Virus record (IMG/VR): IMGVR_UViG_2606217105_000016 | Location: 1-12,601 of that record | Reading direction: 5' to 3' (one strand) | DNA: 12,601 nt | From: a virus | Taxonomy: Duplodnaviria > Heunggongvirae > Uroviricota > Caudoviricetes | In this document: positions 4,360 to 8,372 of the stretch, in pieces | Layout of the letters: each line of letters starts with the position of its first letter | Numbering within the stretch: the stretch's first letter is position 1 | Notes under the pieces: generated by a model | Told to the model about the DNA's origin: nothing | What the model saw: the letters and a program-made list of their open reading frames with translations, nothing else | Database searches by the model: none | Translations under genes and position numbers: made by a program

Positions 4360-4917
4360 TATCGCGTCCTCAACAATGAATTTTGTGATGCGGTGCCTGG
4401 TGCCTCCAGGTGACGTTAACCAGTTAACAATTAACGCCGGATACAGAGAACCCACCCATAACACTGTTTTTGGTTTTAACTGTTCCGCGTGCGCTTAGCC
4501 GCATTCACCGCATCACAAAATTCACTTTAAAAAGGGCGGCAGAGCAGTCACGGAGTAAAACTGATACCGCCAAACGCCACCAGAAAATTGATAACAGAGG
4601 GCGTTGCAGCGGGGTTGTCACTTAAGCGTATGGTCAACCTGACAACCCGGTGTCCTCAACGGGGAAGGAATAACCCCGCCATACTTACCGCCGCGCCATT
4701 TCGCGGATTGCCACAACCGGAAGCGCACGGTCGAATTAAATTTAACGACACCGTACAGACAGAATAACTTCGCCGTGCGCTTTCGCGTTATGTCCTGACT
4801 TTTCAGGGATATATCCTTCCAGTAAACTGCCAGTGCCGGATGCTCACCCGTGTCCGGCGCACGCACTCCACCTGACCCGTGGAGAACTCCTTAATTACCA
4901 ACCCTCAGGAGGGTGAA

Positions 4918-7301: not shown

Positions 7302-8372
7302 ATGGCTAACGCCTGGCTCAGATTATGGCATGACATGCCAAATGACCCTAAGTGGCGAACAATTGCCAGGGTGTCAGGGCAGTCAATTGCAACAGTGATG
7401 GCAGTGTATATCCACCTCCTGGTGAGCGCGTCACGAAATGTCACGCGAGGTCACATTGATGTCACGACAGAAGATTTGGCAAGTGCGCTCGACGTGACAG
7501 AAGAGGTAATTGATTCAATTTTGCAGACGATGCAGGGGCGGGTACTTGATGGTGATTTAATCACTGGATGGGAAAAACGCCAGGTGCTGAAAGAGGACAA
7601 CGGCAATATTTCGCAAACCGCAAAATCTCCGGCAGAGCGCAAGAGGGCGCAGCGAGAGAGGGAAAGAAAGCGGGAACAAAATGGAGATTGTCACGGCGCG
7701 TCACGAAATGTCACGCACATGTCACGACGAGTCACGACAGATAAAGATACAGATAAAGATACAGATCAAGAAGATCAAAACACTATGGTCCATGGCGTAA
7801 AAAACGCCACGAACCAGGCAGGGGATGTTCAGACCGTCAATCCTGGTCAGCCAGCAGGCACGACACCGGAAGCCGATTCAGCGTATGCGCTGAAAGCCGA
7901 TTCGGGCGCTGTGCAGCAGGTGATGACCGCAAGGCCGGAGCAATCACACCAACTGCAGCAGCCTGAAGCCGATTCCGCCATTCAGCGGGAAGCCGATCGG
8001 GTAGTCCCGGAAAACACCGGGCAGCCTGTGAGACGAGTGGATTATCCGGATGTGTTCGAACAGGTCTGGCGGGAATACCCGTTGCGTGCTGGGGCAAACC
8101 CGAAGAAATCCGCTTTCAGTGCCTGGAAGGCCAGATTACGCGAGGGGGTGCCACCAGAGGCCATGCTGGATGGCGTGAGGCGTTACGCAAGATACTTGGC
8201 GGCTACCGGGAAAACGGGAACGGAATTTGTTCAGCGAGCGACGACGTTTTTTGGACCGGACCGGAATTTTGAGAACCCCTGGTTGCTCCCGGTAAGCGGC
8301 ACGAACAACCAGCGTTGTGTGAATCATATTTCTGAACCGGATAACGAAATTCCGCCGGGCTTCAGGGGGTAA
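7302..8372 (+). CDS. Replication initiator-like protein (YdaU/DUF1376-like) with internal iterons
   Basis: Probable ATG at 7302 with AAGAGG 5 nt upstream; the ORF track begins at a GTG at 7296. It sits where lambdoid phages carry the O-type initiator, and contains two iteron clusters in-frame, analogous to ori-lambda inside gene O. It also contains a DKDTDKDTD tandem repeat. Confidence 0.7.
   Translation: MANAWLRLWHDMPNDPKWRTIARVSGQSIATVMAVYIHLLVSASRNVTRGHIDVTTEDLASALDVTEEVIDSILQTMQGRVLDGDLITGWEKRQVLKEDNGNISQTAKSPAERKRAQRERERKREQNGDCHGASRNVTHMSRRVTTDKDTDKDTDQEDQNTMVHGVKNATNQAGDVQTVNPGQPAGTTPEADSAYALKADSGAVQQVMTARPEQSHQLQQPEADSAIQREADRVVPENTGQPVRRVDYPDVFEQVWREYPLRAGANPKKSAFSAWKARLREGVPPEAMLDGVRRYARYLAATGKTGTEFVQRATTFFGPDRNFENPWLLPVSGTNNQRCVNHISEPDNEIPPGFRG
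7426..7470. repeat. Iteron cluster 1 (candidate replication origin element)
   Basis: 45-bp block gcgcgtcacgaaatgtcacgcgaggtcacattgatgtcacgacag with TCACG-type motifs at about 10-bp phasing (7431, 7441, 7451, 7462). Its first 21 bp are identical to the start of cluster 2. Confidence 0.65.
7696..7740. repeat. Iteron cluster 2 (candidate replication origin element)
   Basis: 45-bp block gcgcgtcacgaaatgtcacgcacatgtcacgacgagtcacgacag, exactly 270 bp downstream of cluster 1. TCACG motifs at 7691, 7701, 7711, 7722 and 7732 are phased at roughly one helical turn. Confidence 0.65.
7740..7775. repeat. Short tandem repeat (12-bp unit gataaagataca, two copies plus degenerate copies)
   Basis: gataaagataca at 7740..7751 and 7752..7763, followed by gatcaagaagat. 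Encodes DKDTDKDTDQED inside the replication gene. Confidence 0.7.

Follow-up and report, generated by a model that had tools for sequence, protein, structure and literature searches.

A probable replication origin inside the initiator gene of a lambdoid Escherichia coli prophage

The initiator gene and its iteron arrays

We analyzed a 12,601-nucleotide stretch of tailed-phage DNA (IMG/VR record IMGVR_UViG_2606217105_000016, positions 1 through 12,601; herein the window), in which an earlier reading of the sequence alone (herein the original prediction) had pointed to two clusters of short repeats within a replication gene as a candidate origin. The gene lies at 7302 through 8372 on the + strand and encodes a 356-residue protein (herein the initiator) that matches PHROG 3729, “replication initiation protein,” with an E-value of 1e-256; its two halves also match separate PHROGs. 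Its NCBI name is “phage replisome organizer,” and the corresponding cluster has 5786 member sequences. The protein comprises an N-terminal domain (residues ∼1 through 128) with a predicted role in DNA binding, an acidic linker, and a C-terminal domain (residues ∼245 through 356). No Pfam family matches the whole protein at E ≤ 0.01. Residues 5 through 123 do align end to end, with full-length coverage, with PF09681 (model positions 1 through 119 of 121) and with TIGR01714, “phage replisome organizer, N-terminal region,” in keeping with the NCBI name, but the scores are below the curated cut-offs (17.0 bits vs. 23.3 and 16.2 bits vs. 49.8, respectively); at best, the initiator would belong to a distant, uncurated branch of these families. 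Domains are shuffled among its relatives: two different C-terminal modules are found attached to the N-terminal half, and unrelated N-terminal domains to the C-terminal module.

Two arrays of a short direct repeat (iteron), GTCACG, are found on the + strand within this gene. Cluster 1 (7430 through 7466) has four copies of GTCAC(G/A), starting at 7430, 7440, 7450, and 7461, that at 7450 being GTCACA; it codes for residues 43 through 55, which in the N-terminal domain span the end of helix 3 and the loop after it. Cluster 2 (7690 through 7736) has five GTCACG copies, starting at 7690, 7700, 7710, 7721, and 7731, and codes for residues 130 through 145 in the linker-coding part of the gene. Copies are spaced at 10, 10, and 11 bp, i.e., one per helical turn. 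Reading the sequence bore out the two 45-bp blocks first described (7426 through 7470 and 7696 through 7740, offset by 270 bp), which are identical over the first 21 bases (GCGCGTCACGAAATGTCACGC) and over the last 10 (GTCACGACAG); the second block was correctly drawn, but the fifth copy of cluster 2, at 7690, lies to its left and had been missed. The single inverted copy reported between the clusters also exists (CGTGAC on the + strand, placing the iteron on the − strand); it lies 32 bp past the last direct copy of cluster 1, at 7493 through 7498 rather than at 7492 through 7497 as first given.

The arrays are non-random, given the GTCACG counts and the length of the phased chain in comparison with shuffled sequences. 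Nine of the 11 GTCACG words in the window fall within 7430 through 7736, the expected count for the full 12.6 kb being 4.3, and 11 were reached in none of 200 shuffles; the other two are isolated (1812 and 4547). The longest 10/11-bp-phased chain of any 5-mer has five members in the window and no more than three in 300 dinucleotide-preserving shuffles. Chance is excluded as the origin of the arrays. A repeat-finder check, proposed with the original prediction, gave the same picture (Tandem Repeats Finder reports a period-10 array at 7689 through 7739), and no other iteron array was found in the window.

Directly to the right of cluster 2, the region 7725 through 7799 has a GC content of 38%, and its + strand is strongly enriched in A; a search for an AT-rich unwinding region near the repeats, also proposed at the outset, thus found one. 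Within it, an AT-rich, purine-rich run (GATAAAGATACAGATAAAGATACAGATCAAGAAGATCAAAAC...; 7737 through 7795, + strand; coding for DKDTDKDTDQEDQN) includes 2.9 tandem copies of ACAGATAAAGAT (Tandem Repeats Finder) and is a putative DNA unwinding element. An imperfect palindrome, TGGTCCATGGCGT-AAAAA-ACGCCACGAACCA (7786 through 7816), with 13-bp arms and an AAAAA loop, lies to the right of the run and may be part of the origin; ori-lambda also has a palindrome to the right of its AT-rich tract. Five diverged relatives all keep the inner stem (GGCG/CGCC) unchanged. The closing pair shows one compensatory change in these five sequences, which is indistinguishable from shuffles, and covariation of the palindrome was dropped as support.

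Scanning 5900 through 8900 for promoters and terminators returned nothing above shuffle expectation except this palindrome. Allowing one mismatch, the window has four DnaA boxes, no more than chance would give, and none of them is close to the arrays; the DnaA-box-like ATATCCACC at 7408 through 7416 (7/9 match) was rejected, as it is not conserved in homologs. A second repeated word, RAAGCCGAT, is present four times on the + strand between 7869 and 7997 (starts at 7869, 7893, 7965, and 7989; spacing 24/72/24), again in linker-coding sequence, where it codes for PEADS, KADS, PEADS, and READR. Its expected count is 0.26 per window, and none of 200 shuffles reached 5. This word accompanies the C-terminal module, even in one relative whose N-terminal domain is unrelated; two relatives have the fourth copy in a different frame, possibly through a recent local frameshift. 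RAAGCCGAT may be a peptide motif or a DNA site.

Conservation and covariation of the iterons

The repeats had been described as in-frame, yielding a repeated ASRNVT...VTT peptide. This is true of the 270-bp offset between the blocks. Within a cluster, however, the 10/11-bp period places successive copies in all three reading frames (xxG-TCA-CGx, GTC-ACG, and xGT-CAC). GTCAC occurs at the same gene positions in homologs that are ∼70% identical in protein sequence, from Aeromonas phage pAEv1818 and Pseudomonas phage phita81A, and the peptides encoded by cluster 2 differ among homologs (DCHGASRNVTHMSRRVTT, ACHDASRNVTT, and DDVTQCHAESRNVTL) while GTCAC is invariant. The original prediction had named homologs that keep the amino acid repeat over a decayed nucleotide repeat as evidence to the contrary; we observe the opposite, with nucleotides kept and amino acids varying.

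Selection at the DNA level was measured at conserved-amino-acid codons (ungapped codons 5 through 66) of 23 homologs from different genera. At the third codon position, entropy amounts to 0.13 bit in the 8 motif codons and to 1.38 bit in the 30 codons outside the motif (Mann-Whitney P = 1.3e-5); because the same sequences act as their own control, shared ancestry cannot explain the contrast. The inverted copy is found in most homologs of the GTCAC group, and its valine codon is GTG in all 19 sequences that have Val at this position. Cluster 1 occupies the same gene position (nt 129, 139, 149, and 160) in ∼25 homologs from other genera. It has six copies in E. albertii and some E. coli variants, by way of a 21-bp insertion that adds seven residues, and copy number shifts in whole iteron units. 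Judged from these alignments, the GTCACG repeat is a DNA-level element and not a protein repeat.

The iteron-coded peptide segments coincide with hot spots of insertion and deletion. An AlphaFold model of the initiator was too poor for a fold search and was used only to place these segments; this weak model puts them in the linker, which is disordered, and in a loop of low confidence that follows helix 3. The DNA element would dictate the peptide, with the loop and linker that it encodes tolerating insertions and deletions. The “co-constraint” first proposed between DNA element and protein sequence needs to be worded accordingly, with the peptide following from the DNA.

To describe the architecture across the family, one genome per species was scanned with an alignment of the N-terminal domain. 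The 74 loci obtained belong to Gamma-, Beta-, and Alphaproteobacteria and to a small number of other phyla; after addition of phage loci, there were 59 loci with 10/11-bp-phased arrays. Two clusters are present in 53 of the 59, at ∼nt 130 through 165 and nt 355 through 430 of the gene, and cluster 2 (or its equivalent), with three to seven copies, is present in every one. The 45 nt that follow the last iteron of cluster 2 have a lower GC content than the gene in 59/59 loci (0.35 vs. 0.55; P = 2e-11) and are purine-rich (0.73 vs. 0.57; P = 3e-11). A CAGATAAAGATA / CAGAGAAGAG motif recurs in this AT-rich run regardless of the iteron word.

The word itself changes across the family. GTCAC is used by the loci closest to the window and is kept in Aeromonas, Pseudomonas, Serratia, Bordetella, and others, in homologs with differing C-terminal domains and helicase genes. 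Among more divergent loci, the words are AACGC/GAACGC, GAACG, GCAAC/GCAACGC, GTAACGC, GGAAC, GACGC, and GTGAC. In each genome one and the same word fills both clusters, and the word shifts as the N-terminal domain diverges, i.e., the repeat sequence co-evolves with this domain of the initiator. Such concerted change beside a constant AT-rich element is what would be expected of an initiator-origin pair. In L165, where the same C-terminal module follows an unrelated N-terminal domain, the repeats are likewise unrelated (GGGGCTTCGAAGG type) and again form two clusters ∼270 bp apart. Two loci, L049 (Serratia) and L062 (Pantoea), have no arrays; in these, a non-initiator region takes over from the N-terminal domain after residue ∼105. 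Read over the first 640 nt of the match, this region resembles a GIY-YIG or T5orf172-type module (YVYYV...GISRNPWAR); these loci may be domesticated or interrupted derivatives. Two Pseudomonas loci (L075 and L076) have arrays of GTGAC, the reverse complement of GTCAC, at the same two gene positions, and the orientation of the iterons relative to the AT-rich run appears to be flipped in this subfamily.

A probable origin and its alternatives

We propose that the GTCACG arrays, the (GATAAA)n run, and probably the palindrome constitute the vegetative replication origin of the prophage, located inside the gene of its own initiator; on the sequence comparisons above, this is the probable explanation of the locus. 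The anatomy is in place, the repeats are under selection at the DNA level, and they co-evolve with the N-terminal domain of the initiator. All of the sequence-level predictions that follow from a candidate ori with an initiator-binding array hold (gene identity, synonymous conservation, word replacement, and AT-rich run). The core of the origin is probably cluster 2 together with the AT-rich run. Cluster 1 and the inverted copy look accessory, because six loci lack cluster 1 and its distance to cluster 2 is variable.

A mechanism can be outlined from this arrangement. On induction, transcription from the early rightward promoter would lead to synthesis of the initiator, whose N-terminal helical domain would, to go by the covariation, bind each 10- to 11-bp iteron head to tail. 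As there is one copy in each turn of the helix, bound initiators would line up on one face of the DNA. Protein contacts within cluster 2, and possibly also to cluster 1 ∼260 bp upstream and to the inverted copy, could then distort the DNA such that the neighboring AT-rich run melts. The C-terminal domain would bring in the replicative helicase, perhaps via a DnaT-like tail (see below) and the host DnaB-DnaC.

Several observations weigh against an origin of this kind. The N-terminal domain has no significant match to a characterized initiator or a solved structure (Pfam, PDB sequence and profile searches, and hhalign), and the structure model of the initiator is poor (mean pLDDT of 50; AlphaFold). 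Cluster 1 is absent in 6 subfamily loci of the 59, in which cluster 2 alone is present. The inter-cluster distance ranges from 157 to 350 bp (mode 258 to 260) with no fixed helical phase; this range rules out fixed helical phasing between the clusters and, because of it, a rigid looped complex is unsupported. A phage helicase-loader gene is absent from the window, which makes the helicase recruitment step conjectural. Finally, the literature searched yields no experimental evidence of replication, binding, or melting for this family.

The readings that compete with an origin differ in what they take the arrays to be for. The initiator could bind them mainly for control, with the true origin elsewhere, which we regard as unlikely; under this reading it would autoregulate by blocking transcription of its own gene, control copy number through titration or handcuffing, or exclude related phages. 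The iterons of plasmid replicons do have a dual role, in initiation and in control, and cluster 1 and the inverted copy, which have no AT-rich run beside them and which six loci can do without, would suit an accessory or control element. Cloned origins of lactococcal phages, moreover, confer phage resistance in trans (PMC8965321). On the other hand, an AT-rich, purine-rich run, the hallmark of an unwinding element, abuts cluster 2 in all 59 loci, and the window has no iteron array other than these two; control and initiation are in any case compatible roles. It is very unlikely that the arrays are bound by some other protein (a host factor, a phage repressor, a ParR-type partition protein, or a terminase) and lie in the initiator gene incidentally. 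Helically spaced arrays of short direct repeats are found in plasmid centromeres as well (for example, parC of R1), and those of the ParR type are clusters of 10- to 11-bp direct repeats. The word, however, co-varies with the N-terminal domain across differing C-terminal domains, downstream genes, and hosts, and the arrays are gone where that domain is fused to a non-initiator region. There is no partition gene nearby, and a ParR-type centromere was rejected on finding no ParR, ParM, or ParA gene among the open reading frames or Pfam matches of the window.

Least credible is an internal duplication at the protein level (ASRNVT...VTT), or a slippage-prone sequence, that has no function as DNA. 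It would account for an offset of 270 bp, a multiple of three, and for the ASRNVT and VTT that both blocks encode. Copies within a cluster are, however, read in three frames, and this reading is already contradicted by the peptides of cluster 2, which vary among homologs over an invariant GTCAC, and by the synonymous positions, which are frozen only inside the motif.

Helicase recruitment, related systems, and the prophage

The last 24 residues of the initiator (...NHISEPDNEIPPGFRG; 8298 through 8369, + strand) match the extreme C terminus of E. coli DnaT (primosomal protein I), including PDB chains 6aep, 2ru8, and 9zbt_D (phmmer) and NCBIfam NF002770 (positions 156 through 179 of 179). The end of the initiator is a near copy of the host DnaT C-terminal tail (SEPDNxIPPGFRG). 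A profile of the whole C-terminal domain confines the DnaT match to the tail, and we rejected the initiator as a DnaT, since only its last 20 to 24 residues match and the score for NF002770 is 19 bits, below the cut-off of 201. By its similarity, the tail is a candidate handle for the host helicase-loading machinery; the DnaT literature searched does not state a binding partner for it. Relatives with the same C-terminal module (L162 and L164 through L166) have an IstB/DnaC-like gene immediately downstream, a gene order that mirrors the host dnaT-dnaC operon. In this prophage, phage Tritos, E. coli ATCC 11775, and vB_EcoS-689R5, the initiator gene is followed directly by DUF977, with no loader gene between. 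This prophage and phage Tritos presumably use the host DnaB-DnaC, and the combination of a DnaT-like tail and no loader gene raises the question of how such phages load the host helicase.

One answer, speculative and rather unlikely, is a two-step origin similar to that of DnaA, in which “initiator-solo” phages, those with no loader gene at all, would hijack the host PriA-PriB-DnaT/DnaC replication-restart pathway to load DnaB. The double-strand iteron array directly abuts the conserved purine-rich strand of (GAT-AAA/ACA)n, with its three-base periodicity, and a filament on this single strand, formed by the initiator or by host restart proteins recruited via the DnaT-mimicking tail, would open the duplex. 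The scheme draws only on the conserved run, the similarity of the tail, and the absence of a loader gene from this prophage and phage Tritos.

The proposed origin resembles ori-lambda, with which it was first compared. Both lie in the linker-coding part of an initiator gene, and both combine a repeat array, an AT-rich tract, and a palindrome. The parallel holds for cluster 2 and its AT-rich run and does not extend to the protein, which has no Pfam Phage_rep_O match and was rejected as a lambda O homolog. Lambda O binds the origin through its N-terminal domain and recruits helicase loading through its C-terminal domain, and we propose a parallel division of labor for the initiator. The iterons of lambda are ∼19-bp units with internal inverted (dyad) symmetry, unlike the asymmetric 10- to 11-bp head-to-tail units found here. 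Also unlike ori-lambda, there is a second cluster 260 bp upstream, in the region coding for the DNA-binding domain, and no P-like gene. Within gene O, ori-lambda occupies the part coding for the interdomain linker, with four iterons in lambda vs. six in Stx phages (PMC7466680); iteron copy number likewise varies between relatives of the present locus.

Replisome organizers of Gram-positive phages provide further comparisons. Experiments have shown SPP1 G38P to bind direct repeats in its own gene 38 (oriL, which, like ori-lambda, is in the linker-coding part; PMC6316719), and the TP901-1 ORF13 and Tuc2009 Rep2009 organizers to bind direct repeats in their own genes (PMC8965321), in each case beside an AT-rich unwinding element. 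Our inspection of SPP1 gene 38 and TP901-1 rep also located mid-gene repeats; as for the initiator here, no loader gene lies downstream of TP901-1 rep. These repeats differ in being 9- to 15-bp, AT-rich, and confined to one region, compared with two GC-rich arrays here, and the proteins have other Pfam domains (Phg_2220_C in G38P; HTH_36 and DnaB_2 in ORF13). Homology of their N-terminal domains to that of the initiator was rejected (hhalign probability of 0.3 for both, from shallow profiles). The domesticated chromosomal protein DopC is O-like, carries a DnaT C-terminal motif, and is encoded next to a DnaC-like gene; its authors found no iterons (Brezellec et al. 2017, PMC5509034). DopC is like the present initiator in pairing an initiator-like N terminus with a DnaT C-terminal motif, and like the relatives L162 and L164 through L166 in the DnaC/IstB-like gene downstream. 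It is unlike it in that the iterons here are intact and the element is a prophage.

An origin inside the initiator gene, with initiator-binding repeats and an AT-rich element, is a textbook layout, demonstrated by experiment in lambda, Stx phages, SPP1, TP901-1, and Tuc2009; the probable origin described here falls outside their protein families. Its distinctive features are the very short, one-per-turn iterons, the second cluster, the highly conserved (GATAAA)n run, and, in this prophage, the missing loader gene. We found no description of this family’s origin in the literature searched, although an earlier prediction is possible. The locus is a clear case of coding sequence shaped by the probable DNA sites of its own product. 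An origin would also account for the resistance of this part of the gene to synonymous change, a point of relevance to recoding and to selection scans. Locating the origin tells which prophages can still replicate. Initiator and origin would together make a compact cassette whose iteron words, at least six in number, represent naturally orthogonal specificities and possibly compatible replicons.

The prophage is a lambdoid E. coli element of the DicB/DicF (Qin/DicB) type, and its early region makes up the window. The type assignment follows from a full-length DicF antisense sRNA (4534 through 4585, − strand; Rfam RF00039, 76 bits) and from the dicB/ydfD-type genes found near DicF in matching phage and E. 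coli records; the stray GTCACG at 4547 lies inside DicF. An integrase (1 through 1119), an exonuclease VIII-like gene (1419 through 3890), and a repressor (6020 through 6439) are encoded on the − strand. Cro/YdaS-like and cII/YdaT-like genes precede the initiator gene, and a DUF977/Ren-like gene comes after it. A match to the initiator gene over at least 80% of its length is present in 1647 of 5426 complete E. coli genomes, and any match in 2699; the same gene is found in phages Tritos, Evi, and vB_EcoS-689R5. RefSeq often labels it just as a hypothetical protein, the label “O” in phage records is the annotators’ name only, and the records examined have no annotated origin.

Farther to the right, a 703-residue protein with GHKL ATPase and HSDR_N-like domains (9400 through 11511, + strand) matches the BbrUII/HgiDII restriction-enzyme family NF050001, its score of 237 bits being below the cut-off of 550. 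Its gene overlaps the start of a C-5 cytosine methyltransferase gene (11504 through 12601, + strand), which runs off the end of the window. The two genes look like type II restriction-modification cargo. Other genes take this position in phage Tritos and E. coli ATCC 11775, and 9400 through 12601 appears, from this comparison, to be a variable cargo slot.

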